The position numbers and the translations under genes are program-made. From contig OZ316893.1 in NCBI GenBank assembly GCA_973895155.1, forward strand, positions 9,115,839 to 9,179,838: a DNA stretch of 64,000 nucleotides, read 5' to 3'. Of the stretch, positions 13,429 through 59,642 are shown in pieces. The notes beneath the pieces were generated by a model, which was given only the letters and a program-made list of their open reading frames with translations, was not told the DNA's origin and did not search any database. Numbering within the stretch: position 1 is the first letter of the stretch; the number at the start of each line of letters is the position of its first letter. The stretch comes from Marsupella aquatica. Taxonomy: Eukaryota; Plantae; Marchantiophyta.

Positions 13429-14342
13429 TGCTTTGTCAACCTTCGCCCTCGCGGGCGACTTTCCTTTCTGTCACTCGTCAACAATAACCGAAGGCTCCGC
13501 CAACAGACGACCTCCAACCCAGCAATGCTTTCTTGCTTCCACTTCTCGCACCGCAACATCAGCTAAGTACTGCAGCGCAAAGTACCGTTCCCTGCATTGG
13601 ATAAAGCAACGATAGAAATCAGATACAATGTCCTCTCTCGGCAAGCAGCCTCCCGGGCACAACTCCAAAAAAAAACTTCCGCCGGGAAAAAAACCACAAT
13701 CAAGCGCGAAGCGAATTTTGGGCCACAACGGCGCAAATAAAACAACTCAACAAAAACATGGTTCCAGTCCAGGACCACACCAGAGCAGCTTCACAACGCA
13801 ACAAACGACACACCTTGTTCTCCTCTTGTCCGAGCTTCCAGCTCCAAGCATTCTAAAAAAACAACAACAAAAACACGAGACGGTCTTACCTTCAGACTGT
13901 CGACGAGTTCCAGCGCTGATTCTCAATCAACCATCCAATCGACCACACAGCACTACTTGCGCGCGTCATCGTAAGTGAGGAGAGTCCAGTGCTCGTCTTC
14001 TTCGCCACCTGCGTACCGCGCTACATCCGTTGAACAAGCAGGGAAGCTCCGCGAATTCGGCTCTGCTGGTCCGTCGCGAAGAATCAATTTCCCCGTGTGC
14101 TCGAGCGACGACGCGGCCACAGAACTACGAGCGGAACTGTGGTCGTGACAACCATGGTACCATAGAGCTCGCGCTCGCGGCGCCCTTCATTCGACCTTCG
14201 AGTCCGTTCCGTTCCGTTCCTTTCCTTTCCTTTCCTTTCACGATGGAAGACGAAACCTACACGACGGATCGTGAAGCTACTACGGTGTTCGTTCAAGCGG
14301 CGACAGTGTTTTACGGGCGGGGGGAAAGACCGGCGGGCGGAT

Positions 14343-14978
14343 GGACGCTCACCCCGCGCTTTTTTCAAGAGCAACTGGGACCAACTTTACTAAAACCATT
14401 TTTTTTAATTTCTCACCCCCATGACTGATTGAACATAATTTACTCGGTTGCCCTGTAAAATGTAAATTAATCTACAGTACTTATTATGTTATTTCCTTGC
14501 AAGGAATCGGTGATCGGTGCACCAGGGATTACCTGTAGCTCTTGGCTCTTGGTGGGACTTAATTACTTAAACCATCACTAGCCGCCATGACAAAAAGCTG
14601 GACGCTCACCATGCGCTTTTTTCAAAGAGCAATTGGGACCAATTTACTAAAACCATTTTTTTTAATTTTTTCACCCCCATGATTGAACATAGTTACTCGG
14701 TTGCCCAGTAATTTTATCGACTTATCATGTTATTTCCTTGCAAGGAGTCAGTGTGCTAGGGATTATCGAAGCTCTTGGTGGGACTTAAACCATATCACTA
14801 GCTGCCATGACAAAAGCTGGACGCTCGCCCCGCGCTTTTTTCAAGAGCAACTGGGACCAACTTTACTTAAACCATTTTTTTTTATTTCTCACTTCCATGA
14901 TTGAACATAATTACTCAGTTCCTTTGTAAATTTACCCTGTAAATTTGAAATTTATCTACTTATTATGTTATTTCCTTG
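14343..14978. repeat. Tandem array of a ~210-260-bp unit, left part
   Basis: Unit GACGCTCACC..TTTTTCAAGAGCAACTGGGACCAACTTTACTAAAACCATTTTT..TTTCCTTGCAAGGAATC..CCATGACAAAAGCTG starts at ~14343, ~14600 and ~14820. The third copy is cut at CCTTG by the insertion at 14979. Confidence 0.9.
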
Positions 14979-17900
14979 TGTGGTAGAGTGGTCAAACTGT
15001 TAAAGAACACTTTAACCTCTAAAGACCTGAATTCGTTCCCTTTAAGAGTGAATGAAAAGCAAATTGGTACTAAAAAGAGCAAATAAGATGTTGATTTGGC
15101 ATAACCTTACCAAGGAGTTCTCTCTCCTGAGGATTGATAGTAATCAATGCACAAAAACTAATAATTAAAGAAAGGCATGGAAAAGGACTAGTAAGAATGC
15201 CTTATCAATTGACTCATGAGAAAAGATGATGGAAAATGACGATCCCTAGCAAATCAACAGGATTCTGGATTTTTAAGATTTGGAAGGCAACAGAGCTCAT
15301 AACATGGTCGAATTAGAATAGACATCAAACATTAACTAGAAATTGACATGGAGATCTAGCTATCAAACCAAGAATTCTTTCTGATCAACAAATGGTGACG
15401 GTACTAGAATGCTTGAATTGATATCTTCTCACACAAAGATTTCTAGATTGTCAAATTGATAACTTCTCAATCAAATTTAGATAATTACTCATGGGAAAGG
15501 AAACATTCCATTTCGACTACTAGAACAGCAGGAGTTCAATGCTACCTAGAATCATATGAGTAATTCAAATTGAAATCCAACTTCAAAGTATGATGGTAAA
15601 ATTTCTAAGTATTAACTTCTCAACAGGAGGAGTCTGCAGTTCTACTCACAGCAGGTCAAGGCTCAACAGGAGCACCTGAGGAGGAGCTTCTATGCTTCCA
15701 ACAGAAACTGAGAACTAAGGAAAAATGAATCTGTGTTCCTCCAAAGATACACAAAGGAAGGATCCCAAAAGTCACAAAGTGTCATGTCCGGTTTTCATGG
15801 AAGAAAAAGTAACTGTCAATCAAAATCCGGAAATGAGAACAAAGGAAAATCCGGAAATGGATGTAAGGCAAAATCCGGGTTTTGATTTCCGGTTCTACTA
15901 CTAAATCCGGATTTAGATCTTAGTCGGTTCCGGAAATGCTAACTAACTAACTAAAACAACTAATCTACTGAGCATCATCAACTACATCTACTCTAAGTGA
16001 CTCATGTGTAAGATCAACTGGACTAGCAGGTTTCAGAGGAGGAGATGTAACTAAACTCGCAGTAGCCTCCAAGTCCTTCAAATCAAAAGGTGTTTCGCGT
16101 GGACTGATCGTCGGAGGTGACACTGACGGAAAACGGAACTCAACCTTCTCAAATTCGGGTGGGGTGCCTCCTACTTCATTTTCATCTTGCAACACCGGAG
16201 ACGTTCCGGATTCCGGAATCCGAATTCGGGGAGGAGTCAACATGGACTTCGCATCCGAAATCACTTTCTCCATCTGCTCAAACGTTCCGGAAATCTTCTT
16301 GGCAAAGCGGTTATTGCACTCAATAACCTTAACAAGGGTGCCTGGGTTGGCTGTCGCTAAATACTTATCTATCAGGTTAGCTTCCAACAAGCTCAGGACT
16401 GGTACATGAAGTGCTTCTTGAACACTAGTAACTGCAGCATTCAGTAATTTCCGGATCTTCAGGTGTTCCTCCAACTTCTTCTGTGCAGCATCCAACTGGT
16501 CCACCAAAGAGTCAATCTTCTGTCTGTCCTTGAAGGCCTGATCCTCCAAGTCCCAGATCCGCTTCTTAGCCTGACTCTTGATCACCATGTCCAGGGTGGA
16601 AACGATGACAATCGGGCTGCAGTTGAGCATCTCATCAACCGTCCCAACAAGGTCCTCAAGTTGTTTCGTCTTTCCGGCCGCACTCTCCAAGAAAATCCGG
16701 ACATGCTCCAACTCTGCTGATGCCGTCCACTTCGAACTGGGGGTCACACCCGGAAGACTTCCTCTACTTTCCGGTCTCCGGACAGGTTCCGGAACTTCAA
16801 TAGGATCCGGTTCCAGACTCTGCACAAATTTCTTCTGCGTCCTGGGAGGTCGCACTTCCACAACCGGTTCTTCTTCAGACTCAGTCCCTTCAGGTGTTTG
16901 CCAATCCGGATCTCCGAGTTGGGCTAACATGGCTTGATTCTCATACTCCTCCGCTTCTTCATCTGTAAGAATCCGGTCCATTGCGTAAAGATTGGCTAGA
17001 TAGCAAGAAAGGGATGTGGGAGTCTTCAAATGAAGATTCCGGACCTGGTTGGCTATAACTTCCTCCAAAACTTTGGCCCAGGAAATCTTCTTCTCCCCTA
17101 TGTTAGCAGCAATAGTATTTCCAATCCGGATTATAACTCGTCGAGGCTTGGCAGGGGAAAGAAGTGGAAGCAAAAAGGACAGAACATCGTAAAACTCCTC
17201 ATTACAACACTGGGAAACCTTCCAACCGTCCTTCGGATCCACTTCACCATCAAAATAGTTATCCGCAAAGGCATTCTTGGAGGTCAGGAAGCCCTCTCCC
17301 TTCAAAGGCACATCCAAAAGAGAAGAGATAACTGCTGCAGTCCACTTTTCCAGTTTTGCTCTGATCGAATCCGGAAATTCCGAAGCAAGGGTTGTGCGAT
17401 TCTGGACCTCCTTCACGAATATTGCACTCTGGTATCCCCATGGCAGCTCCATCAACTTCGCACAGCCCATGGTCTCAAGGTTCCCCTGCAAGCGGTCCTT
17501 CCTTGTTGAATCCGTGGGAATTTCCGGTCGCAACGGCTTTTCGTTCACAACGACTGTCCGCTCCTTGGTCGTCCGCTTTGGTAGCGTCCGGATTCCGGAT
17601 TTGTCCGGGGCAAAATCCGGGTCCTTTCTCTTCACCAAAATGAGGAGATGGAGAGAAAGAATCCAAATTAAAATCCTTCCAAAATCCAAAATTCCCAATC
17701 GAACGATCATCCAATCCGGAAATCTGAATCAAGTCGCAAACTTCCCCTCTCAATCGAACGATCACCCACTTCCCCCGTAACGAACTTCCTTTCATCTATG
17801 GCCTCGAAACGGCAGCCTCGTCCGGCTCTAAGCTCTCCTATGATTCCTCGCAAAAGATTTCTGCAGCAGTTCGGTGGTGTGAGGAATGCTTGGTCTGGCG

Positions 17901-18176
17901 TGGTCTTAAGAACTCGGTTGCCAACTTCCGGTCTCCAGTCGGACGTCAGACTTATGGTTTTAATATTCATTCTCCCACGCCTACTCGCATGGCTCAACGG
18001 TGCCGTTACTTATAAGTTCCAAAAAATGGTGCTATCCGGATATTTCCGGATTCAATACTGCAAAGTAGTTTGTTATGGTCTTTTCCGGTCAAAGTATACT
18101 CCGTTAACCACTAAAAGTTGAAAATTTTTAAATTTTTGCACTTTTTAATTTCCTTATTTATAACCATGGTATCACA
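14979..18176. mobile_element. 3.2-kb TG..CA insertion, probably a very long solo LTR or an internally deleted LTR retrotransposon
   Basis: Starts TGTGGTA and ends TATCACA (imperfect inverted termini). 5-bp TSD CCTTG at 14974-14978 and 18177-18181. Removing it restores the host repeat TTTCCTTGCAAGGAATC. No second LTR copy or gag/pol is seen inside. Confidence 0.85.
15965..17710 (-). CDS. Uncharacterised 581-aa retrotransposon-associated protein (globular N-half, acidic/Pro linker, coiled coil)
   Basis: Intron-free ORF wholly inside the TG..CA insertion. Hydrophobic block KISWAKVLEEVIANQV..PTSLSCYLANLY, then a heptad-like stretch. No RT, integrase or protease motifs. Confidence 0.7.
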   Translation of the reverse strand: MIVRLGILDFGRILIWILSLHLLILVKRKDPDFAPDKSGIRTLPKRTTKERTVVVNEKPLRPEIPTDSTRKDRLQGNLETMGCAKLMELPWGYQSAIFVKEVQNRTTLASEFPDSIRAKLEKWTAAVISSLLDVPLKGEGFLTSKNAFADNYFDGEVDPKDGWKVSQCCNEEFYDVLSFLLPLLSPAKPRRVIIRIGNTIAANIGEKKISWAKVLEEVIANQVRNLHLKTPTSLSCYLANLYAMDRILTDEEAEEYENQAMLAQLGDPDWQTPEGTESEEEPVVEVRPPRTQKKFVQSLEPDPIEVPEPVRRPESRGSLPGVTPSSKWTASAELEHVRIFLESAAGKTKQLEDLVGTVDEMLNCSPIVIVSTLDMVIKSQAKKRIWDLEDQAFKDRQKIDSLVDQLDAAQKKLEEHLKIRKLLNAAVTSVQEALHVPVLSLLEANLIDKYLATANPGTLVKVIECNNRFAKKISGTFEQMEKVISDAKSMLTPPRIRIPESGTSPVLQDENEVGGTPPEFEKVEFRFPSVSPPTISPRETPFDLKDLEATASLVTSPPLKPASPVDLTHESLRVDVVDDAQ

Positions 18177-18181
18177 CCTTG

Positions 18182-18600
18182 CAAGGAATCAGTGTGCCAG
18201 GGATTATCGTAGCTCTAGGTGGGACTTAAACCATATCACTACATTAGTCGCCATGACAAAAGCTGGACGCTCACCCTGAGCTTTTTTCAAGAGCAACTGG
18301 GACCAACTTTACTTGAACCAATTTTTTTTAATTTCTCACCCACAGGCTTGATTGAACATAATTACTCGGTTGCCCACTTAGTGTATTATTTCCTTGCAAG
18401 GAATTGGTGCACCAGGGATTACCTGTAGCTCTTGGTGGGACTTAAACCATCACTACCAGCAATGACAAAAGCTGGACCCTCACCCTGCGCTTTTTTGAAG
18501 AGCAACTAGGACCACTTTACTAAAACCATTTTTTATTTCCCACCCTCGTGATTGAACATAATTACTCAGTTGCCCTGTAAATTTGTCTATTTATTATGTA
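18182..18600. repeat. Tandem array of the ~210-260-bp unit, right part
   Basis: Continues the interrupted unit (CAAGGAATCAGTGTGCCAGGG), with further copies at ~18265 and ~18475. Degenerate pieces recur near 19200-19470. Confidence 0.88.
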
Positions 18601-19980
18601 CAGGGACTGGGTGTACAAAAAAATATAGTTGGGAGTATGATTTTCCCTCACACTCCTAGCCCCCCTCTATAGGAATAGTGCAGGGTATTCTCATTGGCTC
18701 TCAAGTCCAAAACTCCTACATTTTATATGTAGTGTACAGCTTGGAATATGGTGTATTTGGGGGCTTGGGGTGTCAGAGGGAGTGATTGTACTTCCTACCC
18801 CTGGCCATGAAACCTTGCCCTAAGCATGGATGGATGAGGGGTTTGTTTTGCCAATCTCCATGGACTGTGACGCACACTCCTTCACTTTACACCCAAAGTT
18901 CACACTAATGCATTATCTTTGGCAGGATGCTCACTTCTGAGAAGGATGCCCTTGGTAGTTCGTGCATGAGCCATGACCTACCACTGTGTATGCTAATGGA
19001 AAACCATTTGTGAGCCGTCAATTAGAGCCCATTTACAGGTCACATTCTAGTCAAAACTATAAAGAGTGTTATCCGAGCAATTTTTTGATGTTTTGAGTCA
19101 GCCCATCTCAGCTTTAAAAATCCATGGGGGCTTCACTGAAAACCCCTCAGTCCATCCAGGCTGTACTTTCCCCGAATCAAACACAATCTCTAAGTTTTCA
19201 TGTAAATTAATCTACTTACTATGTTATTCCTTTGCAAGGAATCAATCGGCCTTAGATAACTCAAACAACTGGAATTTGCAGCTAAGATCTATACATGGGG
19301 CAGCTTAAAAATTTAAAAGTTTTGGGAGCAACTTAAGAAAGTTGTCCAATTTTGCATGTGATTCAGTTAAAAACAGTAATGAGAACCATATTAATTTTTT
19401 CACTCCCAAAAATTGAACAAAGTTACTCAGTTGCCCCGTAAGTTAATCTATTTACTATGTTATATCCTTGCAGCTAAGATTAACCTTGGGGGTAGGTTAC
19501 TAATTAAAACAGTTTTGGGGCAAAAAGTCTTTTGGGTAGCTTAGTAAAAAAACAGTTTACTAGAAAGGCTGCAACAAAGTCAGAGAACCAATTTACAAAA
19601 TAGGCCAAAAAAAGTTAAAGAGGATTAATTTAGTAGCAAGGGCTAAACAAAAGGGTTCACACAAAGGGTGGGACAGACATCTCACCTTTTTGTAGACTCA
19701 GATTTCATCTCAATCGTTACTTAGGTTAGGGACTGGTTGTTCTTGATGTAGAAGACTAATGGCGGCCCTTTCAGATCTGGTTTGCCCAAGCCTACATGGC
19801 AGTCGGTGGGTCCAGCAAGTAAAGGTTAAGAAATCCTGACAGTGAGAATGTCCATGTAGCAACAATGACATTTTTGGGAAGCTTGGTCGAAAAGTGGGAA
19901 GCTGGTTTTTATAACAACCATTTGAAGGGCACATTTCCTGTTATTCTGGTGAACTAGCTCAAAACCCGTGCGTTGCACAA

Positions 19981-20310: not shown

Positions 20311-21726
20311 AAAAGAGTCGGGCAGGGGAGAAGGGAAGAGGGAGGGAGGGAGGGAGTGGGGCGAGGCAGGGCCGGCCCGGGTCATTGGGGCCAGGAAGGA
20401 GGGTGGTGGGAGGTTGACCGCAAGAGTGTGGCAGTCGACGGTTGGCGCATGGGGCAAGGCAGCAGGGTGGTCGCCCCACTCGTAGTAGAGGGTGGCTGCA
20501 CAACATTTTACTTGCCTCGGCTCAGTGCTGTCGCCACGATGAGACTGCAATTGACCTCAGGAGCGGGTGTGAGGGCCATTTTTGGTCACTATTGCTTTGG
20601 TTCTTTTCCATATTGAATTTCTTTCACCCAAAATGGCCCTGTAAATTCAAATGACGACCACGGCAAAAAAAGGCGCAATTCCTTATTAGAGTTTTTGATG
20701 TTGTCAAATGTGGTTGTCCCTTTGTATATGTATCCCTTAACCTGTCACCCCAGCCAAGAGTGGTTTGGCCCCCAACCCCTTGTTATCTCATCCAAATATA
20801 TATAAAATTTTGCCAAGTATATTTGTTTTTATAAAATGATTTCATTCATATGAGTACCAAGGGGACTGGGTGTATACACTCTCCTTGCATTGCATGCACA
20901 TCAGGTGTACATTGGGGCAGGGTCAATACAAATAAGACAATGGTCAGGGAGGGATTAATTAAAGAGGGATAAAGAGTGTATTTGCAAATACAATGATGAC
21001 ATCAAAAGGAAGTACTGTACTTTGTACTCGCTAAAGTGATGAGGAATATCAAGAAGGATTCTGCTCCCTCATATTTTGCGGTGGATTTATTTTTATTTGT
21101 TCTCTTAGCTTTGCTTTGTATATGTGATTTCTTTCATTTGGCACGGACAACTGTAAATTTTGAATGACAACCACTTCAGAAAACGGCGCAACTGTGTATT
21201 ATAGGATTTAATGTCTAATGGGCCAAAGGGCCTTTGCAAATATCTATAAACTAATTTATTAGCACTAATAAGTAGACTATAAAAATACAACAAGAAATCG
21301 CCATAAAGTTTTAGAGGAGGGTTCACAAGGAATAAGGATCCTGGGATTTATTCAAGTTTGAGTCTCGGTTTGAAAATGTTTCAAGTCTGAATTTTCAACC
21401 ATAGTTGTGTTATTAAATATAGTAAGTTGTTAATGATCATTGGCAGTGGAAAGCTTGATGGTCTCCCCGCCATACTAATTGTTAAACATAGTGGACAATA
21501 ATTACAGACCCCCACTCGGGGTCCCTTCCAAAATTCCAGGCTCCACAACGCACCACATCATCACGGCACGTTGCAAACACGAAGAGACTTTTTTTTGGAT
21601 AAAATTAACTTTTGCATTCGTGTTTGTGGCAACTTTTCATTAAAAACTAGGATGTCATGCCGTAAAAAAGAATGTAAAAAAAACTGAAATGCAAATCAAA
21701 AGACAAAGATTGAGGTAAAACTGCCC

Positions 21727-21901
21727 TGTCGTGACATATAGTATCGAAGCCATAGTGTATCGAAAACATACAGTCACTGGCAAGGCATATGAGCAAGCTG
21801 CTAGCAACCAACATGCATAGAAAAAGTCCCATCACATTTACAAGTGCCAAGAAAAAGCAAATGAGGTGGTATGTACGTAGTGGAGGTGTAAACCTCTGTA
21901 T
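21727..21901 (-). repeat. Repeat B2 (175 bp), 3' end of the element
   Basis: Second copy of 22262-22436. Abuts A2 and ends ..CACGACA on the element strand. Confidence 0.95.
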
Positions 21902-22259
21902 ATAAAAGGTGTGATAGAAACAAGTGTACTGAAATCGAATCGAAAACCGGCGAGATGCCAAGATCGACCGGGAGCATCTAACGAATCACTGTGTGAATCC
22001 CGTGTACGGAACCGACGAGCACTGTCTAAGCTCTGTCGACAGCGATTCAAGAAGAACTGAAAACCCTCAAAGAAAGACATGCCCTAAGCAAGCAAAGTCC
22101 TGGCGTCACACTAACAAACACATTTGCTTCAAGAACGGCCCAGACTTGCTACAAGAACATGTCGCTAACTCAGGTAGTACACTAGCCCTAACTACATACC
22201 TAGCGGGCATGAGAGGGACATGCCGATGTGCATAAGAGGCACTGTCCCTCGGCATGACA
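21902..22259 (-). repeat. Repeat A2 (358 bp)
   Basis: Second copy of 31350-31707. Separated from B1 by only 2 bp (GC, 22260-22261). Confidence 0.95.
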
Positions 22260-22261
22260 GC

Positions 22262-22436
22262 TGTCGTGACATACAGTATCGAAGCCATAGTGTATCGAAA
22301 ACATACAGTCACTGGCAAGGCATATGAGCAAGCTGCTAGCAACCAACATGCATAGAAAAAGTCCCATCACATTTACAAGTGCCAAGAAAAAGCAAATGAG
22401 GTGGTATGTACATAGTGGAGGTGTAAACCTCTGTAT
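22262..22436 (-). repeat. Repeat B1 (175 bp)
   Basis: Matches 21727-21901 with 2 substitutions. Immediately preceded on the element strand by a G7 run (22437-22443). Confidence 0.95.
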
Positions 22437-22475
22437 CCCCCCCAGACCACAGCCAAAAGGAGGGCTGAAGAAAAG

Positions 22476-23918
22476 TCAGGTAGCACGTGGAGCACAGGAA
22501 GGGCAAAACCACAACCCTTCTGGCACCTGGGAAAGTTCAGGCCGAAGGCAGAAAAGATGGTACCCTCCATTGCAATTGTCACACAGCAGCATCTGGTCAG
22601 CATCATCAATTCGCAAACACACTTTGCAAGGGTAATCCACAGGTGGGATCCAAGTAGAAGTGACAATGGTGGGATCCAGGTTAGGTAGATGACAAGGGGC
22701 ACAATTCTTGGCATTGTCAGCAATTGTGCGCCCATCTGCCCCTTGTAACTCTAGCACTCCAGACGGTCGAATAGCTTTAACCCTGAGAATAGTACGACTG
22801 GTAGAGGTGTCCAGGGTGTCGTTAGCTTGCCGCTGCAAGTACACAAAATCTCCCACATCAAACTGCCTGACCTTGGGCTGAAAAGTGCCCCCTCGTGTGT
22901 GTGCATAACGCAGTGTGTCCCTGTGCTGTGCAATGGCCAAATTCTCCATGGCCATGGGCATAACCCTCCTGAATAGGGCAGCCCTCTCAGAGATCACATC
23001 AGACCAAGTCACAGCTGAATCCAAGTCCACCACGTGAAGCATGTGAGCAGCAATAGCAGAAGGTGGAACTGGGTGACGACCAAACAACAAGAAGTAGGGA
23101 GAAAAGTTAGACAGTGATGCATGTCTGGACATCCTATACCCCATGGCAATGTAGGGTAAGGCCAGGTCCCAATCCTCCTTGTTTTTGGTAAGGCAGATCT
23201 TCCGGAGGTCCTTCTTGCATGTCTGAACCATGCGCTCTGCCAAGCCATCTGCCTGTGGGTGATCTCGTGATGTCCGACGATGATCAATGAGGGCCTGAGC
23301 AAGCAGCTCCTGGAACTCTCCTCTAAACTCTGAGCCCTGGTCAGTGAGACATTCTGCACAAGCTCCAAAACGACTGAGAACTTGTTGCAGGAATGCCTGG
23401 CTGGTGCTACGGGAGATCTTATCCGGCAATGCCACAAGTTCTATCCACTTGGAGAAATGCTCTATCATGATCATGATGTAGAGATTACCCCGAGACGTGA
23501 GGGGTAATTCTCCAGCCAAATCACATGACCAGTGATAAAACATGCCCTGAATAGGGAGTGGATGAAGTGTGGGTTGCCGAGATGTGAAAGAAGTCCTCAC
23601 CCTATCACACTGTTCACACCGGGCAATAACATCTCGGACCTGGCCATGCATGCCTCTCCAATGATAATGAGGGACCAAGAGGCTATAAGTCCTCTTAACG
23701 CCAAAATGACCAAGCTCAGAATGTACCTTACGGATAAGGCCAACCCTCTCATGAATGGGTGGAACCACCACTTCCCTGTCTGGCAAGCAGCGCACGAGAT
23801 GATCTCCCTTCCACAAGTAACGCTTGGACCTTTGCTGAATGCGGTCTCTCTGGGCAACAGTAACATGTACGGGTACTCCCCATGCTGCAAAAATCTCACA
23901 GTGTCGTTGTCCTCCCAT
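22476..23918 (-). CDS. DDE integrase with C-terminal PHD finger (frameshifted continuation of pol)
   Basis: HHCC zinc motif HSELGH..CEQC; catalytic WSCDLAG, LTDQGSEF, GLAERMV; PYFLLFG. C4HC3 PHD CKVC..LLCDNCNGGYHLFC..WFCPSC at 22494-22628. Confidence 0.93.
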   Translation of the reverse strand: MGGQRHCEIFAAWGVPVHVTVAQRDRIQQRSKRYLWKGDHLVRCLPDREVVVPPIHERVGLIRKVHSELGHFGVKRTYSLLVPHYHWRGMHGQVRDVIARCEQCDRVRTSFTSRQPTLHPLPIQGMFYHWSCDLAGELPLTSRGNLYIMIMIEHFSKWIELVALPDKISRSTSQAFLQQVLSRFGACAECLTDQGSEFRGEFQELLAQALIDHRRTSRDHPQADGLAERMVQTCKKDLRKICLTKNKEDWDLALPYIAMGYRMSRHASLSNFSPYFLLFGRHPVPPSAIAAHMLHVVDLDSAVTWSDVISERAALFRRVMPMAMENLAIAQHRDTLRYAHTRGGTFQPKVRQFDVGDFVYLQRQANDTLDTSTSRTILRVKAIRPSGVLELQGADGRTIADNAKNCAPCHLPNLDPTIVTSTWIPPVDYPCKVCLRIDDADQMLLCDNCNGGYHLFCLRPELSQVPEGLWFCPSCAPRAT

Positions 23919-26900
23919 ATGTCCACCATAGGTTGGTCAACAACGTAGCATGGCAGCAAAGCAAGATAAGTAGATGCATGAAATGTAGGCAGGATGGAAA
24001 CCTGGTCAAAATCCTGCCGTGCATTTGAGGAATCATCAGAGGCAATCAAAGGGCTGCGGGACATAGTGTCAGCATTTTGATGTGTCACACCAGGCCTATG
24101 AATTACCTCAAAATCATACTCCTGGAGTATGAGCGCCCAACGAGCAAGCTTGCCAGTAAGCTTGTCGTTGGTCATCAACCACTTTAAGGGCTGGTGGTCG
24201 GTGTAGAGAACAAACCTGGTCCCATAGAGGTAGGGCCTGTAATGTATGACAGCCCACACAACAGCAAGGCATTCACCCTCATAAGAAGAATAATGACTCT
24301 CTGCCTGATTGTTGCTCCTGGATGCATAGGCAATGACGTACTCTTTACCTTCCTCATCAGGCTGGCCCAGAATGGCATCAATCCCAAGGGCACTCCAATC
24401 TGTGTGTAGCACAAAGACCTTGCTGAAATCAGGTCTTCTAAGCACCGGGTATTCTGAGAGCTTCTCCTTCAAAGTGACAAATGTTGCCTCAGCATTTGTA
24501 CTCCATGTCCAAGTCACATTCTTTTTCAACAAAGAGTACAATGGATGTGCAATGGTACTGAAATCTTTGATGTAGATCCGGTAGTAATTGCACAACCCAA
24601 TAAAGCTCCTAAGAGTGTGAACATCAGTAGGAGTGGGCATTTCCAGGATGGATACCACTTTGGCCCAGTGAGCCATGGTTCCATTTGGAAAAATGCGGTG
24701 CCCAAGGTATACTACTGATCTGACAGCAAATTCACACTTCTTGGGGTGTATCTTCAGGTTCACCTTCTTGAGCCTCATGAATAGCTCCTCAAGGTCAAGT
24801 AGATGCTGGTCAAATCCTTTGTTGTGGACCAACACATCATCAATGTAGCATTTCAGAAACTCAACACCTTGAAGAACGTGGTCCATGACTCTTTGAAAGA
24901 ATATGGGCGCATTCTTCAAGCCAAATGGCATCACCAACCACTCCCATAGTTGGTTACTACCATGGAAAGCTGTTTTCTTGCGATCCTTTGCAAGCAGCAA
25001 AATCTGGTTAAAGCCTTGCCTTAGATCCACAAGAGTGAAGATGTCTGAGTCTCCAATGCTGTCAAATAGCTCCTCTGGCCGTGGCATGGGGTACCTGTCC
25101 TGGGGTGTGACCAGGTTCAGTGGCCTGTAGTCCCCACACATGCGCTTCTCTGTCCACAATCCACTGGAATCCTTCTTTGCTGGCATCACTGTAGCTGCTG
25201 CAAAATCTGATGTAGATGGCTGAATAAGACCAGCTTCATATAACTCTTGGCACCTCTCATCCACCAGCTGCCACTCATGCTTACTCAAACGATGTCTCCG
25301 CCTGAAGATAGGTGTTTCATCAGCCAACTCAATGGAGAACTGCATGGTCTTGCACTTACCCAAGTCCTTCATAGAGAAAGCAAACACATTCTCATACTTG
25401 AGGAGCAAATTCAGCAGCTGGTCCTTCTGCCTTTTACTCAGGTGGTTGCCCATGATGAATGTGTAGTTGGCAACACTAGGAATAGGACCTGATGTACTCG
25501 TGCTTGAAGAGCCAAAAGTGCCAGCCTCTCCACTGTCCAAGCTGCTAGCATGCTGCTGATAATGTGATGAGGCCTCTCCAAGGCCTGTTGTACTTGTTGC
25601 TCTGGTCTGATCCACACCATGAAACTCAAAAATAATGTCAGCCACGTTACAAGGGATCTCCTCCCCCCCAACACTTGGACTGAAGCGGTGAGTGTTGAAT
25701 AGAGGTAAGTGCACCTGGTCTGGATGCCATGTAGCAGCACCATGGAGTGGTAGAGCTGGAACTCCTGGTGCGGGATGAATGTACATCTGAAGAAGGATGC
25801 AAGTGACCAAAAGCCAAGTGAGAGCATGGAGATCCATTACCCTACCAAGTAAAGCATTCCTGGCCAGCCTGGTGATGTGGGTGTGGCCTGTAGTACCGGA
25901 TTGGAAGCCCATAGCCCGTTCTCTCTCCTCAGGACTAGGTTCATCCCAAGTACTGGTAGAATGTCGATAAACCAGGCCAGGACCATCACCCTGAAAGGCA
26001 TGTGCACCTAGAAAGGATACAAATGTAGGCCAAGCAGCACGGGGCTGTCTAATGGTATTGGCTGGATACCAAGGTGCTGGCTCTTGCCGTGTAACTGGTT
26101 GGCAAGAACTGTCAGGATCCAAAATCTGGTCCACTGTGAGGTTAGTGTCCCTGGATGTGTGGTGAAGAGCTAACTCCAACAAGGAAGGTGGTGCAAGGTT
26201 AGTCCAAAAGTTACGAAGACGATGTGCATAAGAACCACAGTGCACTGCATCAATGAGAAGGGGTGGTCCCAAGTAGTGTTGGACCACACTGAAATCTTCT
26301 TTGACCTGTGGACGCTGATCAAACTGAGATGGAGTATTCTCAATGATATAACCAACAGCAGGATAAAGGGATTGAGCCCAGGTGAGAATCTGAACCAATG
26401 CTGTGAAAAGGCCAGAACGAGAATCATGCAGTCCAGCATCGTGACCAGCAGCTAAAAACCCTTGGCATTCCCAACCAGCTATGATCAAATCAAGGGAGCC
26501 AAGAAGGGTTAAGTGCCGGTGCTGGACAAGCTGGATATATGGAGGAAAGAAAGAAAATGCAGACTTCCATGCACTGTGTGGAAACTGCTGGGGAAATCGC
26601 TTTGAAAATTCCAGCAGACGGGATTCAGCCACTTGCCTTGCACCTGGATCAATATCCACATAGATGTACTGCTTCACCACCATGCCAAACTGTAGGAGAG
26701 CTTCCAGGCCTGTAGAAATGCCACCAAAAAGCTCAAGCAATGTAAGGCCATCTGAAGGAGGAGTCCATGTAACTGGTGCGCTCAAGATTGGGGCTATTGG
26801 TTGGCCATTGTGCTGCCCAAGATCCTCAAATTTGCGCAATGCAGCCACCAAAGGTCCATGGGCTGCTTGGAGCCGTTGTACCACCTCTGGTTGATGATCC

Positions 26901-28282
26901 ACGCTGCTGGAAAGTGCTGCTATATGTGCAGCAGCATGTGCAGTAGCCACCTCATCGTCATCCTCCTCAATCCAATCTTGTAATGGGTGGTTGACATAGG
27001 TAGCTGTGTGCACTGCTTTCAACACACAGTGGTGAGCCATAGGTGTATGGGCACCATGCAAATCAAGTGGAATGTAGCCCAAGTGTGAGCCATCAGTATG
27101 CCAATCAACTCTGTAGTATGCATGCTCATGCCAGTTGTCAATGGTAAAACCTGGTGGGAACAAAGCCTCCTGGCCAATGAGCACATCATACGTAGTGGCA
27201 TTGGTAACCAAACATCTGACTGGGAAATGCAGTTCCTGATCTGTACCTCCATTAAAAGTGAGAGTGAGTAAAGTAGAACTCTCACCCAGCACATCCTCCA
27301 CAGTGCCACTAGCAGTCCGAATGTGCCACTTGGATTGCTGTAAGTGATCAGTCAACAGTCCCATCTTCTTGGCAAACTGAATGCCCAATATCACTGGTTG
27401 AGCACCTGTGTCTAGCATGACCACCTGAGGAGTGTGACCCTCCAACTTGACCACGGAATTCCTGTTGTCAACAATGGCAATGGTGGTGGAAACTGAAGTC
27501 CTGTCACTAGGCACCACTCTCGGCAAATGATGAGGTACCTTGTGAAGGGAGTTAGTGTCCACGGTCTTTCCACTCAACAACATAGCCAGGAAAGATGGAG
27601 CAGCATGACCAGAATCAAATGTAGCTCTGGTCACACAATCAGCAGCAATCGGTACTGGGGCAGCCAAACCAATGGAAACATGTAAAGGAGAAGAAGAAGG
27701 TCCAGTATGTACATGAGATTGGACCTCCAAAACCGGTGTCACAGGGGCTGATGAAGAATGCAGTGAACCCTCTAGCGCTCTGATGACAGCTCTAGCATCC
27801 AGCTGTAAATCATGGCAACTGAAAAGTGGAGTTGTAAGAATCCTTTGTGCCATACTGGAGGTGAAATGCTCAAGCAGCTCAGGAGAAACAACTCCCTGTG
27901 AAATGTCAGCAGCACCTGGTGGTGGAATGGATGTAGCTGCAGCTCCCTCCCCCCTCGCCAACAAGGTGCGCTCTTCAGCAAGTGTGAGTGGCTGAAAAGA
28001 TTGGGGCATGATAGCCTGAGCTCCCCTGGCTCTAGTTATAGGACTGGCAAGACCATCAGCCTGTACAATGCGGCGTGTGGGAGCAATACGGGAGGCAGCA
28101 CTAGCCTGTTGGTAAGCAAAATAGGAAGGGCAGAATGAATCTGAAAATTCTGCTGTAAGGCCAGGCTGTGGAGCAGAGGACAGCACACACTCACCCATAT
28201 GAGCATCAAATGGCAAGCCATAGAAAGAGCGGGGTAGAGGTGCTGAACTGTCAGTGGTGCCTGGGCCAGGGATGGGTTGCAC
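23597..28282 (-). CDS. Pol polyprotein: aspartic protease, C5-cytosine methyltransferase, reverse transcriptase, RNase H
   Basis: Protease VMLDTGA..YDVLIG (~27170-27420). MTase motifs at ~25820-26750. RT KRMCGDYRPLN, VMPFGLKNAP, YIDD (~24840). RNase H LHTDWS, YEGECLAV, YTDHQPL. The reading frame shifts to the integrase ORF near 23870. Confidence 0.93.
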   Translation of the reverse strand: MQPIPGPGTTDSSAPLPRSFYGLPFDAHMGECVLSSAPQPGLTAEFSDSFCPSYFAYQQASAASRIAPTRRIVQADGLASPITRARGAQAIMPQSFQPLTLAEERTLLARGEGAAATSIPPPGAADISQGVVSPELLEHFTSSMAQRILTTPLFSCHDLQLDARAVIRALEGSLHSSSAPVTPVLEVQSHVHTGPSSSPLHVSIGLAAPVPIAADCVTRATFDSGHAAPSFLAMLLSGKTVDTNSLHKVPHHLPRVVPSDRTSVSTTIAIVDNRNSVVKLEGHTPQVVMLDTGAQPVILGIQFAKKMGLLTDHLQQSKWHIRTASGTVEDVLGESSTLLTLTFNGGTDQELHFPVRCLVTNATTYDVLIGQEALFPPGFTIDNWHEHAYYRVDWHTDGSHLGYIPLDLHGAHTPMAHHCVLKAVHTATYVNHPLQDWIEEDDDEVATAHAAAHIAALSSSVDHQPEVVQRLQAAHGPLVAALRKFEDLGQHNGQPIAPILSAPVTWTPPSDGLTLLELFGGISTGLEALLQFGMVVKQYIYVDIDPGARQVAESRLLEFSKRFPQQFPHSAWKSAFSFFPPYIQLVQHRHLTLLGSLDLIIAGWECQGFLAAGHDAGLHDSRSGLFTALVQILTWAQSLYPAVGYIIENTPSQFDQRPQVKEDFSVVQHYLGPPLLIDAVHCGSYAHRLRNFWTNLAPPSLLELALHHTSRDTNLTVDQILDPDSSCQPVTRQEPAPWYPANTIRQPRAAWPTFVSFLGAHAFQGDGPGLVYRHSTSTWDEPSPEERERAMGFQSGTTGHTHITRLARNALLGRVMDLHALTWLLVTCILLQMYIHPAPGVPALPLHGAATWHPDQVHLPLFNTHRFSPSVGGEEIPCNVADIIFEFHGVDQTRATSTTGLGEASSHYQQHASSLDSGEAGTFGSSSTSTSGPIPSVANYTFIMGNHLSKRQKDQLLNLLLKYENVFAFSMKDLGKCKTMQFSIELADETPIFRRRHRLSKHEWQLVDERCQELYEAGLIQPSTSDFAAATVMPAKKDSSGLWTEKRMCGDYRPLNLVTPQDRYPMPRPEELFDSIGDSDIFTLVDLRQGFNQILLLAKDRKKTAFHGSNQLWEWLVMPFGLKNAPIFFQRVMDHVLQGVEFLKCYIDDVLVHNKGFDQHLLDLEELFMRLKKVNLKIHPKKCEFAVRSVVYLGHRIFPNGTMAHWAKVVSILEMPTPTDVHTLRSFIGLCNYYRIYIKDFSTIAHPLYSLLKKNVTWTWSTNAEATFVTLKEKLSEYPVLRRPDFSKVFVLHTDWSALGIDAILGQPDEEGKEYVIAYASRSNNQAESHYSSYEGECLAVVWAVIHYRPYLYGTRFVLYTDHQPLKWLMTNDKLTGKLARWALILQEYDFEVIHRPGVTHQNADTMSRSPLIASDDSSNARQDFDQVSILPTFHASTYLALLPCYVVDQPMVDIWEDNDTVRFLQHGEYPYMLLLPRETAFSKGPSVTCGREIISCAACQTGKWWFHPFMRGLALSVRYILSLVILALRGLIASWSLIIIGEACMARSEMLLPGVNSVIG
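25820..26750 (-). other. C5-cytosine DNA methyltransferase domain inside pol
   Basis: Motif I LELFGGIS, II YVDID, IV LIIAGWECQG (catalytic Cys), V DSRSGLF, VI YIIENT, VIII AHRLRNFW, IX ERERAMGF, X RNALLGRVMD, all in canonical order. Confidence 0.9.
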
Positions 28283-29835
28283 GTGACCGCCGGTTGAGAA
28301 GGACCAGCAGAGGCAGTTGACTTGCCTTTGATGTTGGCAAGTTGGGCACGTAGGGACTCAATCTCATGAGTCAGAGACTGGAGTTGAGTTGCCTGTGCGT
28401 TGTGAGCCTCCTTTTGAGCTAGTTGCTTTGGTTGCTTCTTGGGCGGTTTGTTGGCACTGGATGCTTTGCCACTGGAAGGAGGAGCAGTTGATGTAGTAGG
28501 AGCCCTCCTAGCTGGTGGGGGAGTGGAAGCAGGAGCAGGAGGAGGGGCCTGCTGGCGTAGCTGCTTCCTCTCTGGGAATTTGGCAAAACAAACTGCCTCC
28601 AAGTGACCCACTTTTCCGCAAAAATCACAAGACAGGTCCTCAGCAACAATATCACAGTCATTAGCCTTGTGATTGGGGTTACCACAGTAGTTGCAAGATG
28701 GCAGCATGAAAGCAGCATGGGCTGGCTTGGTCTTGGAACCATACTGTGGCACACGGGAAGGGGTGGCCAGTGTAGGGGCAGCAGCCCGGTACCTGGATCG
28801 CGGTGGACGTGCAATACTGGCCTCATAATGTGCATGGGCCAACTCAAGTTTCTCAGCAGTGTCATAGACATTGAGCAGGGTGTAGCTGTCTCCAAACTCT
28901 GAGAATACTTGCTGCAACACTTGCGAATGGAGAGCTAGTGTGCCCTCCAATGCGCGAAGATAGCGATGAGCAGCTTCCAGGTCAGTGATGCTCTGGGTGT
29001 CCTCCTTAAGCTTGAGAAGCCGACGATACATCATCTTCAAGGTTTCATCGCGTTGCCTCACAAAGGTGGCCAACTGCATGATTTTGTCAGCACTCTTGAT
29101 GGGGAATTCCAATTCAAGAACCTGGAAAAACTCAGCCACTGGATCAGCAAAGGCAGGGGAATCAATGGTGGGAGAAATGCCTGATGTAGCCTGTGCCAAG
29201 ATAGTGGGAGTAACTAGCGCAGTGGTAGGAACTGGAGTAGGAGGGGAAGTGGCAGGAGCAGCAGCATGGGCTGCAATGGCATTCTGTAATGCCAATTGTG
29301 AGGCAGCCGCAATTGCACTGGCATAAGCAGGGTTAGGCAATTGTGTGACAGCAAGCAGCCGTTGAGAGTGCTGCTCATACACATCCAAAGCCTCGTGGTG
29401 CACATACTTGGCTAGCTGCTTAAATGCAAAAGCATTTGTGAAATTGCTGCCGTACTTCAACTCCAATTCATAAACGACAGTGTAGAAAGTGGATTTGAAC
29501 TCACGTAAAGAAACAGTGCCTGGCCGCCCGCTGAAGCGCTCAATGCGGCCAGATGAGTGGCTAACATCCATGCTGTATGTCGGTGAAGCTGGAACAACCA
29601 CTGATGCAGAAGGGGTAAATGGCAAGGAAGTGGTAACAGGCTTCGGGTTAGTGGTGAAGCAACCGCCAAATTGAGCAGAAGGATTGCGTGGTGTGGGTGC
29701 TGCTGCTGTCTGCGGATGTCGTCGAAATTGCCGAGACTCCAATGAAATTGGCACCAATGGTCGTGGATCACTCCGTAAATGGTACCTGGGTGTCGGTGGT
29801 GATGTGCTGCTACCTCCTGGCTCGTCGGCTGACAT
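28036..29835 (-). CDS. Gag-like protein with two CCHC zinc knuckles
   Basis: IERFSG..LREF N-terminal capsid-like motif and QRDETLKMMYRRL major-homology-like motif. Knuckles CNYCGNPNHKANDC and CDFCGKVGHLEAVC. Confidence 0.9.
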   Translation of the reverse strand: MSADEPGGSSTSPPTPRYHLRSDPRPLVPISLESRQFRRHPQTAAAPTPRNPSAQFGGCFTTNPKPVTTSLPFTPSASVVVPASPTYSMDVSHSSGRIERFSGRPGTVSLREFKSTFYTVVYELELKYGSNFTNAFAFKQLAKYVHHEALDVYEQHSQRLLAVTQLPNPAYASAIAAASQLALQNAIAAHAAAPATSPPTPVPTTALVTPTILAQATSGISPTIDSPAFADPVAEFFQVLELEFPIKSADKIMQLATFVRQRDETLKMMYRRLLKLKEDTQSITDLEAAHRYLRALEGTLALHSQVLQQVFSEFGDSYTLLNVYDTAEKLELAHAHYEASIARPPRSRYRAAAPTLATPSRVPQYGSKTKPAHAAFMLPSCNYCGNPNHKANDCDIVAEDLSCDFCGKVGHLEAVCFAKFPERKQLRQQAPPPAPASTPPPARRAPTTSTAPPSSGKASSANKPPKKQPKQLAQKEAHNAQATQLQSLTHEIESLRAQLANIKGKSTASAGPSQPAVTCNPSLAQAPLTVQHLYPALSMACHLMLIWVSVCCPLLHSLALQQNFQIHSALPILLTNRLVLPPVLLPHAALYRLMVLPVL

Positions 29836-31349
29836 GCTGCATGCTCACCTGGGTGCCAATGGGAAAGAAACTGACAAGAAAAAGAAATGGCAGCCCCAAG
29901 GCTAGGAAATAAACGGTGCGAGGCAGAAATGTGTCGAATGTGTAAACACACAGAAAAATTGTCACAGAGAAAAACCGTCACCGGAGAAAAAGGACCCTTA
30001 AAACCACCAAATTGTCCCTTGTCGCACTTACCTATGTGTATACATAGGCGAAGCAAAGAATAAGGGAAAACGGGCCCCTAGAACGTGAAAGGAGGGCCCC
30101 CTTTACGTGTATACCTCGGGCCCCTTGTGGACCCGGAAACTGGCAGCAAAGGTATGCAAAAGTAGGTGGGACGGTCGTCGCACGGCGAAGGAGCAAGAAG
30201 GCCAAAAACTAAAAGAAAAGGGCCCCAATTAAGTGTATACACATGGGGGCAGGGCGTCGGCAGAAAAATGGTCGGCCGCAGTGCCCTATGCACATGCCCT
30301 CATGTGAGTCGAAAGACTCTGCAATCGTCGCGCAGCGGACGAGCGACCATGGAGGAACAGAAAAAGAAATAGAAGAAAAACGGCTTTGGCAAGGACGAAA
30401 GGAAAAGACGAGACCCAAGGCGAGGAAAAAGAAAAACGGGCCTTTAAGTGCTCTAGCCCTGCATAGGGCTTTGCGCACCCTTCCCCTCCTCTAATGTTCC
30501 ATAGGGCCTCGTGCCCTTGTCCTCGCCCCTGACAAAAGCACTCCCGTGTGAGGGAGTTTGAATTGAACTCCCCTGAGTCCCCTCCCCTGGTTTAATGCTG
30601 CCTAGGGCCTCGTGCCCTTCTTTCGCTTCCCCCTCCCCTCCTTAATGCTTCATAGGGCCTCGTGCCCTCTCCTGGCACACTCGCGCTGCCTTATGCTCGG
30701 CTCCCCTTCCCCCATGCTTTAATTCTCCATAGGGCTTCGTGCCCTCTGTCCTCTCGCTTGCTTATGGCAGGGCAAAAAGAAAGGGAGTCGAGGCAGGAAA
30801 AACGGGCGAGAAAATGCCGAAAAAGGGAAGAAACATCCCGGATTGAGGAGGGACTACGGCCGGTAAAGGGAGATACAGCCGAGGCAAGGGCATGGTGCCC
30901 TATGCACGGCCTGTGCAGGGCGTCGCGAGGCAACAAAACGGGCTCAACGGCAGCCGTGGCCGAAAAGTGGCAACAAACACAAAACGGCCCCAAAAGCAGT
31001 CGAGGCAACGGTTGATGCAACGTCGGCAGCAGCAGGTTGTGGCGGGAATGTGAAGGGCCAGCGGCCTACAAACCACGGGTTGCAGTCGGGAGGTGGTCGT
31101 GCGGCAAACGGCAGTGACAGTCGGAAGCAGCAAAGGAGTCGCGGATGCAACCGGAAAGGGAACTCCTGACCCCTTCGGAAGCATGGATATGTGTATACAC
31201 TTAAGTATACACATAACCACATAAACCCATAACTTTCATTCCGTCGCTCCAATGTTCGTCAAAGAAATTGCAATGGCTTCACCAAAAATTGTCGAAATCG
31301 CCACGAGCAATCTTCTTCCCGTCACCGCTAACTCGACAGTTCTTCTTGA

Positions 31350-31707
31350 ATAAAAGGCGTGATAGAAACAAGTGTACTGAAATCGAATCGAAAACCGGTG
31401 AGATGCCAAGATCGGCCGGGAGCATCTAACGAATCACTGTGTGAATCCCGTGTACGGAACCGACGAGCACTGTCTGAGCTCTGTCGACAGCAATTCAAGA
31501 AGAACTGAAAACCCACAAAGAAAGACATGCCCTAAGCAAGCAAAGTCCTGGCGTCACACTAACAAACACATTTGCTTCAAGAACGGCCCAGACTTGCTAC
31601 AAGAACATGTCGCTAACTCAGGTAGTACACTAGCCCTAACTACATACCTAGCGGGCATGAGAGGGACATGCCGATGTGCATAAGAGGCACTGTCCCTCAG
31701 CATGACA
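31350..31707 (-). repeat. Repeat A1 (358 bp), 5' end of the element
   Basis: Matches 21902-22259 with about 7 substitutions by eye. Confidence 0.95.
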
Positions 31708-58340: not shown

Positions 58341-59642
58341 AGAGTTGAGTGTGTATGAGTTCCCATCCCCTCTCAACATGTGCTACAAAAAAAAACTAAA
58401 AAAGAAAAGAAAAAAAGTGAATTTGTTTAGAAGCTCTAAACCTCGACTCTACAAAGATTAGTGAAATCCTTAGCGGGTGTCTAAGAAGGTCAGGTTGGCG
58501 AACTGATTACTTGAGTTACACTACTGTACCTGATTGGGTTGGGCATGCAAACTGTATAATAGGAAATTAATAGGAAACTAAGGCAGGCTTGGTCTGATTG
58601 CTAGTAATTATTGGTGAGGCAGGTGTGCAAGAGGTGAACGCTAGAGGGGTCATGTAAGTCCAAACCTTGCGCTAGGAATGCATTTCTCTTTTCTGGCCCG
58701 ATTCCTGTCCCGACATTTTCTTCTGTTCCGGTGGCAACTCAGATTCTCCGTGGGTGAGAAGGCTTTGACGGCAGCGGGAGGTGGGCCCTCTGCGTTCACT
58801 CCAAGCAAGCAGAAAATATCATTGGGAGGTGACAAGGCTGGTGGGGCTTTCTGGGCTTCGCCATATCTGCAGGCTTTGTATGAAAATGGGAAGGGGAAGG
58901 TGGTGGGGCACAGCGTCTTCGATACGGCACACCGTTTATGTTGGATTTGGATTTGGATCAGTGGGAACGAGAGGCCATACAGACTGAGGATATGGACTTC
59001 ACGAGACAGAGGAGATAACATTATTCCAAGTTTGAAGCGCCAGAGATGCTCCAACAGACACAACTGTGGACAAAATCTCAGCTGTCCGAGTGTACTGGAG
59101 AAGGCGAAGAAGAAGCGCACTGGTTTGTCTTCTTCTTCCATTAACATCGTTATCTTGGAGGGTTGCCCCAGCTTTAAGCTAAGTAAGGAGCGCAATTTTT
59201 TTGAAAGAATTCCTTGGAACTGAATTAGAGAAATCGAGGAAGGGACGAATGAATTGTTAAGATCGGTTAAGTCAGCTGCCCCATTGATGGATTGAGTGAC
59301 CGAGGGAAGCTTTGAAGAGAAGGTAGGAGGCGTGACGGCAATCCCAACTGACGAGAAGGCACACACGGGGTTGTACGTGACGAGAGTGTGAGGCCACAGA
59401 GCAACCAGAGAAGCAATTCCCACGTAGGGCTCCTGGACTGCAATTCTAGCTCTCTCCTGTGCTCCCTCATTCGTGGCGGACTGTTTTAAGGGAGGACGTG
59501 GAGGAGAGTGGGGAGGCCCGTGCCCGTACCCTGCCTTTACCATTCACCAACATTTCTGGACAGGTCCGCAGGGTAATGTTGAAACTTCTGCTGCAATTCT
59601 ACAGGTTTTCTGCCATCTTTCGTCTCCCCTAGTGTTGCCACA

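Follow-up and report, generated by a model that had tools for sequence, protein, structure and literature searches.

A 64,000-nucleotide stretch of contig OZ316893.1 (the window, by which the whole of this stretch is meant) carries a Ty3/Gypsy-type retrotransposon of 9,981 bp (21727-31707, minus strand, TG..CA termini) that appears to possess a circularly permuted long terminal repeat (LTR). The arrangement of its sequence suggests that the ends of its linear complementary DNA (cDNA) are likely joined, and that its integrase then likely cuts an internal CA-GC-TG palindrome to insert the element. Read in sense, the element consists of repeat B1, a self-primer site, a leader, gag-protease (PR)-methyltransferase (MT)-reverse transcriptase (RT)-RNase H (RH)-integrase (INT)-PHD, a G7 tract, repeat A1, the dinucleotide GC, and repeats B2 and A2.

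Anatomy of the permuted repeat

Apart from the target-site duplications (TSDs) and the palindrome, to which no strand is assigned, all element features lie on the minus strand. A sequence-only reading that preceded this analysis had described GCCC duplications flanking TG..CA ends, and these were found at 21723..21726 and 31708..31711, immediately outside the termini at 21727 and 31707. The split direct repeats of that reading also stand, in the order B-ORFs-A-GC-B-A (ORF, open reading frame). B1 (31350..31707, beginning TGTCATG..) forms the 5' end, while the 3' end is formed by B2 (21902..22259) and A2 (21727..21901, terminating in ..GACA); A1 lies internally at 22262..22436. The two A copies (175 bp) differ at 2 positions and the two B copies (358 bp) at 7, an overall divergence of 1.7% in which transitions account for 8 of the 9 differences, and this low divergence argues for a fairly young insertion.

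The borders of these repeats carry the argument. B1 is followed directly by a putative self-priming primer-binding site (31337..31349), 13 nt that pair with a stretch inside B1 (31493-31507); including 2 nt within B1 the pairing extends to 15 bp, which was reached in 0 of 20,000 shuffles of B1. The paired stretch is also the predicted RNA 5' end and self-primer (31493..31507, with a start near 31507), and there is no tRNA-type TGG site at the primer site of the window element. A1 begins immediately after a G7 polypurine tract (PPT; 22437..22443, C7 on the plus strand). B2 meets A2 at 21902/21901 in a blunt join with zero overlap and zero insert, where the primer-site end of B is fused to the PPT end of A. 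Between B2 and A1, the element's own right end, a GC spacer (22260-22261) and its own left end together form the palindrome GACA-GC-TGTC (22256..22265), the proposed integrase cut site. Because B ends exactly at the primer site and A starts exactly after the G tract, the unit between PPT and primer site, A-GC-B, is, as its borders indicate, what reverse transcription would treat as the LTR. A2 would be the PPT-proximal portion of the upstream LTR relocated to the right end, and the inserted element probably corresponds to the linear cDNA circularly permuted, with GC as the point of opening. The earlier description of non-LTR-style ends, lacking both LTR and primer-binding site, thus gives way to a permuted LTR that has both a PPT and a site for self-priming.

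Between the repeats lie a GC-rich leader of 1.5 kb (29850..31336; four 41-nt repeats, CpG observed/expected ratio 0.82), gag with a zinc knuckle (28291..29571), an aspartyl protease (LDTGA; 27161..27451), a Dnmt3-like C5 cytosine methyltransferase domain (25760..26770), reverse transcriptase (YIDD) with RNase H (24098..25357), an integrase in which the H2C2 zinc finger, the rve core and the D, D and E motifs are all present (22947..23771), and a PHD finger at the integrase C-terminus (22494..22628). The leader has low read depth, suggesting that it differs between subfamilies. Pfam returned zf-CCHC, aspartyl protease, DNA_methylase, RVT_1, RNase H, Integrase_H2C2, rve and PHD in that order, with zf-CCHC (E 0.0024) and DNA_methylase (E 0.003) below the cut-off; together with the Dnmt3 fold matches described below, these bear out the gag, protease, C5-methyltransferase, RT, RNase H, DDE integrase and PHD named in the sequence-only reading. 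Rfam gave zero matches. The gag-PR-RT-RH-INT order, the DDE integrase, TG..CA termini with a TSD in the 4-6 bp range and a primer site after the 5' repeat, whose use as such is putative, are those of Ty3/Gypsy elements; the 5' end carries B only, A being copied internally, and two complete flanking LTRs are absent. Nor does the PPT adjoin the TG of the 3' LTR, since the G7 tract precedes A1 and is 177 nt upstream of that TG. The coding region is spread over three frames, with frame changes near 28290 and 23870. Relatives are uninterrupted at both breaks (P0002 and P0021 near 28290; P0193, P0307, P0312 and P0314 near 23870), and close relatives keep gag and pol in a single frame. Because the two changes are read through in these close relatives, the window copy is probably defective and not autonomous.

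Conservation of the layout in related elements

The internal junction is not peculiar to the window. GACAGCTGTC is found 3' of pol in all five family loci that reach this region (L001, L140, L144, L145 and L150, with L002 being too short), and in none of 144 unrelated control loci totalling 1.59 Mb, even though the RT, RH and integrase of those five are just 36-75% identical to those of the window element. L145 possesses the full 3' layout A1-GC-B2-A2, with a B of 360 nt, and then a flank that does not begin with GC. In L140 a G7 tract precedes A, and a 13-nt complement differs in its letters from that of the window; the second arm of this pair begins at offset 359, in agreement with a B of 358-360 nt. 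Tracts of G6-7 lie ahead of the junction in L140, L145, L144 and L150, and complementary pairs of 12 nt, of uncertain position, occur in L144 and L001.

A similar boundary recurs in the Chlamydomonas repeat library that forms the supplement of PMC9940879, in which 51 LTR records were covered. CA-GC stands at the LTR boundary in 20 of 31 Gypsy internal records, 17 of which have CA-GC as their last letters and 3 GC-TG as their first. These records represent 12 of 22 numbered families, a count in which the 3' ends of Gypsy-13 and -17 are not assignable; among Copia records the boundary motif is present in 0 of 11. The copied A piece ranges from 6 to 50 bp, being 6-8 bp in Gypsy-2 and Gypsy-7 to 11 and ~50 bp in Gypsy-3, 6 and N2a, and mostly follows a G-rich tract, while Gypsy-7, 8, 9 and 10b have a TGG primer site directly after B. 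The integrase motif of the clade lies near Gypsy-3, 5/6, 14, 21 and 22, as assigned by position in the library. Gypsy-7a_cRei, which possesses a PHD, has a left LTR without its last 8 bp according to a figure legend (PMC9940879), as the permuted-LTR model predicts, and is credited with 86 of 109 new insertions in CC-4532 (PMC9940879). A search of the library with a methyltransferase motif in six codon variants gave 0 matches, which does not establish absence. Records that begin with GC (5a, 21 and 24) were considered as a second isomer and set aside, because they look reverse-stored: the repeat of 5a is followed by a run of C, and a primer site in reversed form closes 24.

Copy number and insertion junctions

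Thirteen sequencing runs cover part of the window, and in five the share exceeds 0.2. Depth in run X3 is 13-16 for two flank contigs that match the window exactly and 1,207-1,686 for six core contigs; taking depth as copy number, for which it is not a safe count, the family comprises roughly a hundred copies. Contigs depart exactly after the CA equivalent to 22259 in at least 12 (X1), at least 11 (X3) and at least 9 (X4) cases, and just before the TG equivalent to 22262 in at least 3, at least 6 and at least 5 cases in the same runs. Those with one extra G after CA (at least 4, at least 5 and at least 2 in X1, X3 and X4) amount to about the share expected from random flanks. Because the flanks are mutually unlike (agreement 0.42-0.45) and leave at identical bases, the family has many insertions with exactly the same ends, at which the GC spacer is not retained. 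In X4, which may be the source sample, one contig links the element end to the window's own left flank; in X5 no contig covers the junction stretch, which is not proof of absence. An assembly chimera, named beforehand among the outcomes that would overturn the proposal, is thus unlikely, given unlike flanks that start exactly at CA or TG in three runs and the element's own left junction in X4. At 22261, within the GC spacer, T replaces C in ~5% of the depth; the substitution would disrupt the palindrome and probably arose after insertion.

The element is lodged in a short host repeat of very high depth (~21601-21726 and 31708-31846), and the reads include empty-site forms linking 21724 to 31713.

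Scans of viral contigs with the methyltransferase, its alignment, the integrase motif and RT-RH found no family member. A metagenome scan with a generic pattern gave 61 loci, 2 of which belong to the family and the remainder to other C5 methylases, and 4 of 11 genome-contig matches are family members. Several clade contigs are filed inside prokaryotic bins, namely L140 and L145 (a metagenome-assembled genome, MAG, titled uncultured Synechococcales cyanobacterium), L144 (a Mollicutes MAG) and L150 (a Halorubrum MAG), and are likely bin contamination; UniRef lists one protein of this clade of eukaryotic retrotransposons under the name of a cyanobacterial reverse transcriptase. In L140:3-6635 an in-frame stop lies between gag-PR-MT and RT-RH-INT-PHD, and the ~1,043-aa RT-to-PHD protein recurs in a 226-member cluster; a two-ORF form, or read-through of the stop, may be a subfamily trait.

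A proposed route of integration and its alternatives

In the route proposed here, which is considered likely, the RNA would begin in B1 near 31507 and end in B2, and its first 13 nt would prime the minus strand by self-priming in the manner of Tf1. The plus strand would be primed at the G7 tract, and ordinary reverse transcription would then yield a linear DNA with A-GC-B as the LTR at both ends. Joining of these ends, as a 2-LTR circle or a head-to-tail joint, would come next. Integrase would then nick each strand of the upstream palindrome behind its CA, and the resulting 2-nt 5' GC overhangs would resemble processed retroviral ends. Insertion of the opened DNA with a 4-bp stagger would give B1-ORFs-A1-GC-B2-A2 and the TSD. 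Replication by some unconventional route, as the sequence-only reading had supposed, is most likely.

The layout can also be read after the model of PAT and Ngaro elements, a copying scheme reportedly due to Goodwin and Poulter. Here, RNA would run from B1 into A2, A1-GC-B2 would serve only as a template for rebuilding both ends, and the B2/A2 join would be inherited, with a DDE integrase in place of the tyrosine recombinase. The repeat order corresponds to the A1...B1-A2-B2 arrangement of split direct repeats in PAT, Ngaro and VIPER (PMC6681497), the repeats of KnitGypsy-Dnmt3 have been termed DIRS-like (PMC5890265), and copying of this kind accounts for the single isomer seen. However, it leaves unaccounted for why B should stop exactly at a primer site and A begin exactly after a G tract, as they do in the window, in L140 and L145, and in Chlamydomonas families with an A of 6-8 bp, and it is judged unlikely. 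Slightly less likely still is a permuted LTR in which the B/A join arises by a template jump of the reverse transcriptase, giving a concatemer or open circle with internal sites trimmed by integrase, and not by ligation of a closed circle. Such a jump would produce the same inserted layout and blunt join and could favor the upstream site, but it is hypothetical, and end-to-end template jumps often gain or lose bases while the join observed is exact. That an ordinary paired-LTR element was rearranged locally by deletion, nested insertion or mis-assembly is very improbable, for although two frame changes mark this copy as decayed and its surroundings are a host repeat of high depth, L145 has the same layout, the palindrome is present in five distant relatives, many insertions end at identical bases and the left junction is found in reads.

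Several observations weigh against a permuted LTR inserted by cutting of the joined intermediate. The circle, the linear cDNA, the RNA ends and the enzyme activities of the route are all predicted. A 2-LTR circle would contain two palindromes, yet only the product of an upstream cut is seen, for which the route gives no reason. The signals are not uniform: in L001 the 400 nt ahead of the junction contain no stretch of 5 G, complements of at least 10 nt are absent from L150, and of four Chlamydomonas records tested for a self-priming complement, Gypsy-6 and N2a have one, whereas none was seen in Gypsy-3 and 10a. In the window itself, the self-primer stem is paired in the centroid structure but not in the minimum-energy fold (z -0.82). 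The TSD is seen once only, the first two bases of its right copy are the letters of the GC spacer, and empty sites at paralogous loci exceed by one base the length expected from a 4-bp TSD. Finally, a motif search of the Chlamydomonas library did not find the clade integrase motif near Gypsy-7 to 11; Gypsy-7a may therefore share the layout without belonging to the same clade.

The methyltransferase and the PHD finger

The nearest solved proteins to the METHYLTRANSFERASE domain (25760..26770) by sequence are DNMT3A, 3C and 3B (best E 1.4e-6, against 0.17 for HhaI). A structure model built from a 30-sequence alignment (pLDDT 94) has DNMT3A/3B as its first matches (E 7.5e-19, TM 0.70), and the weak Pfam DNA_methylase match is therefore taken as genuine. 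The window copy retains catalytic C102, E144, R184 and R186; of 169 relatives, ~100% have the catalytic Cys and the motif VI Glu, and 99% have the Args of motif VIII. It deviates at S106 (S106L), G241 (G241R) and S256, the first two of which are otherwise conserved. The methyltransferase family numbers 240 clusters at E up to 1e-30 and 672 up to 1e-10. The suggestion that the element represents a distinct lineage with its own epigenetic domains is thereby upheld in the form of a large family with a PHD and a Dnmt3-like domain of putative methyltransferase activity.

Domain order varies among 187 proteins, with RT-RH-MT-INT-PHD in 54 and MT after the protease or before RT, the window type, in 15. 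In P0201 a single ORF runs from gag to PHD, and in P0314, at 71-86% identity, one runs from MT to PHD. Carriers of the RT-RH-MT-INT-PHD order, some of them partial, include the chlorophytes Tetradesmus, Hariotina, Pleodorina, Haematococcus, Volvox and Chlamydomonas eustigma. RT and INT trees made with FastTree and rooted at the midpoint (within-family, no outgroup), whose 75 sequences comprise the window, the 42 non-'post' proteins in full and 32 of the 89 'post' ones, group the window with all 7 MT-before-RT proteins, a Coleochaete scutata transcript and the L140 family, and no MT-after-RH protein falls inside (support 0.97 and 0.80). In an MT tree of the window, all 18 'pre' and 48 of 159 'post' domains, also with no outgroup, the 19 'pre' domains form one clade (0.98). 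Together, these groupings point to one shift of MT position or to two captures of related enzymes.

What these domains do can be proposed with less assurance. The methyltransferase, packaged within the polyprotein, may methylate new cDNA, a tentative prediction held at a little under an even chance; methylation of an element's own cDNA is a proposal of de Mendoza et al. (PMC5890265). Against it, the Klebsormidium Dnmt3 enzyme had no activity in yeast (PMC5890265), and four relatives of the chlorophyte-type group with long N-termini gave no MT match, indicating that the domain is not universal. The closest solved domains to the PHD are those of WSTF, CHD4, ATXR5, KDM5 PHD1 and BAZ2, which are mostly readers of unmodified H3 tails, and there is an even chance that the PHD on the integrase reads such a tail and steers insertion away from active promoters. 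CpG depletion of pol (observed/expected 0.24) was considered as a sign of self-methylation and rejected, as the unrelated ORF at 49364-53227 has a ratio of 0.23 and relatives have 0.46-0.78.

In P0004, P0011 and other MT-after-RH relatives, an extra C-terminal domain past the PHD has an adenine-methyltransferase-like motif (a loose pattern, in 18 of 89 long tails), and relatives of this type may be Dnmt3 + DAM + PHD elements; some MT-after-RH relatives also possess chromo or G-patch domains.

Other features of the window

Exons of the plastid kinase ABC1K3 lie at 59583-62764 on the plus strand. The exon at 62123-62686 is 94% identical to that of Calypogeia fissa, 91% to Marchantia, 89% to Riccia, 85% to Sphagnum and Ceratodon, and 76-83% to seed plants and ferns, and the host is probably a liverwort. 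With this neighbor and the many insertions in reads, the element belongs to a repeated family of a land plant.

ORFs of 1,287 and 204 aa at 49364-53991 (plus strand) have no Pfam match and a strongly depleted CpG ratio of 0.23, and may represent a DNA-transposon gene, which they resemble. A 587-aa ORF (15965-17728, minus strand), also with no Pfam match, lies in 14320-19470, a region with repeat clusters spaced 200-260 bp on both sides that is probably another mobile element. The window also contains a tRNA-Asp(GTC) gene (33537-33609, minus strand), in which no complementarity to the element primer site was noticed, and a tandem duplication (45029-46492) with a period of ~730 bp and copies 89-96% alike.

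Implications of the proposed joined intermediate

Joined-end circles are usually regarded as by-products of LTR retroelement replication, a view disputed in a foamy-virus paper (PMC1180852). If the route proposed here is true, it defines a clade in which the end-joined route is the rule and each inserted copy records the cut of a joined intermediate, and it links split-repeat (PAT/Ngaro) and LTR elements through one geometry. On balance, though with reserve, the observations favor a large green-lineage Gypsy group, from Chlamydomonas to liverworts, with attachment sites inside the LTR and obligatory integration from an end-joined intermediate, a 2-LTR circle, opened by a DDE integrase at CA-GC-TG, one branch of which would carry a cDNA-methylating Dnmt3-like enzyme and an aiming PHD. 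The layout is present in about two thirds of curated Chlamydomonas Gypsy records, including the actively jumping Gypsy-7a, making the model testable in a genetic system. Gypsy-Dnmt3 elements, so far described for a single alga, now also include those of a land plant and of the chlorophytes named above, and hundreds of sequences are available in which to seek an active enzyme. Because LTR finders require paired LTRs, such elements would have been overlooked, and standard annotation is implied to under-count them.

The novelty suggested earlier for the combination of features survives in part. Gypsy domains, a Dnmt3 and DIRS-type repeats already occur together in KnitGypsy-Dnmt3, but no report from a land plant was found. 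It is the permuted-LTR anatomy, and not the combination of domains and repeats, that is new. A literature search that lay outside subscription papers, Repbase Reports and the Craig 2021 thesis found no Gypsy-Dnmt3 in a land plant, no Dnmt3 with PHD, no chlorophyte carriers and no permuted-LTR Gypsy.

Comparison with known systems

The closest described system is KnitGypsy-Dnmt3 of Klebsormidium nitens (de Mendoza et al. 2018, PMC5890265), which shares with the window element a Dnmt3-like domain in a Gypsy Pol and, according to the legend of Fig. 4c, DIRS-type repeats in the order A-coding-B-A-B. The two can be compared by description only; the window element has a land-plant host, and the available text on KnitGypsy gives no PHD, TSD, primer site, PPT, CA-GC-TG palindrome or mechanism. 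EpiLTRs, or DAM-LTRs (bioRxiv 10.64898/2026.05.21.726589), are likewise Gypsy-type elements with DNA methyltransferases and a chromatin reader, but they combine DAM, a DNMT4-related enzyme and a chromodomain, whereas the window element has one Dnmt3-fold domain and a PHD, after which its ORF stops. The EpiLTR authors regard streptophyte Gypsy-DNMT3 as a separate acquisition, with no mention of mosses or land plants in the text available (bioRxiv 10.64898/2026.05.21.726589).

Self-priming without a tRNA primer is also known in Tcn1/Tf1-sushi chromoviruses, which occur in bryophytes (Neumann et al. 2019, PMC6317226) and share that signature with the window element. These have paired LTRs and a chromodomain, and the terms PHD and methyltransferase have 0 occurrences in the available text (PMC6317226), whereas the window element has a PHD and no chromodomain. 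That survey used LTR-FINDER and demanded paired LTRs (PMC6317226), and the permuted layout would therefore be missed. In Chlamydomonas reinhardtii, Gypsy-3, -6, -21, -22 and Gypsy-7a_cRei have CA-GC-TG at the LTR boundary and a short A after a G-rich tract, as in the window (PMC9940879). PHD-bearing Gypsy elements are known there, among them Gypsy-7a, for which an MT is not listed in the parts of the source available (PMC9940879). The Chlamydomonas records are annotated as an ordinary LTR plus internal sequence, and Gypsy-7 to 10, unlike the window element, have tRNA-type primer sites and an A of 6-8 bp.

Two further systems bear on mechanism. PAT, Ngaro and VIPER share with the window element split direct repeats and an internal copy of the joined ends (PMC6681497) but use a tyrosine recombinase, whereas the window element has TG..CA ends, a TSD and a DDE integrase, its Pfam matches including rve and H2C2 but no recombinase. 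In prototype foamy virus, integrase cleaves each strand of the palindromic 2-LTR junction just behind CA and thereby produces a 5' overhang of 2 nt (Delelis et al. 2005, PMC1180852), the same chemistry as would operate here. The foamy virus palindrome forms only upon end joining, whereas that of the window element is built into the LTR, and its joined ends would be found at B/A.

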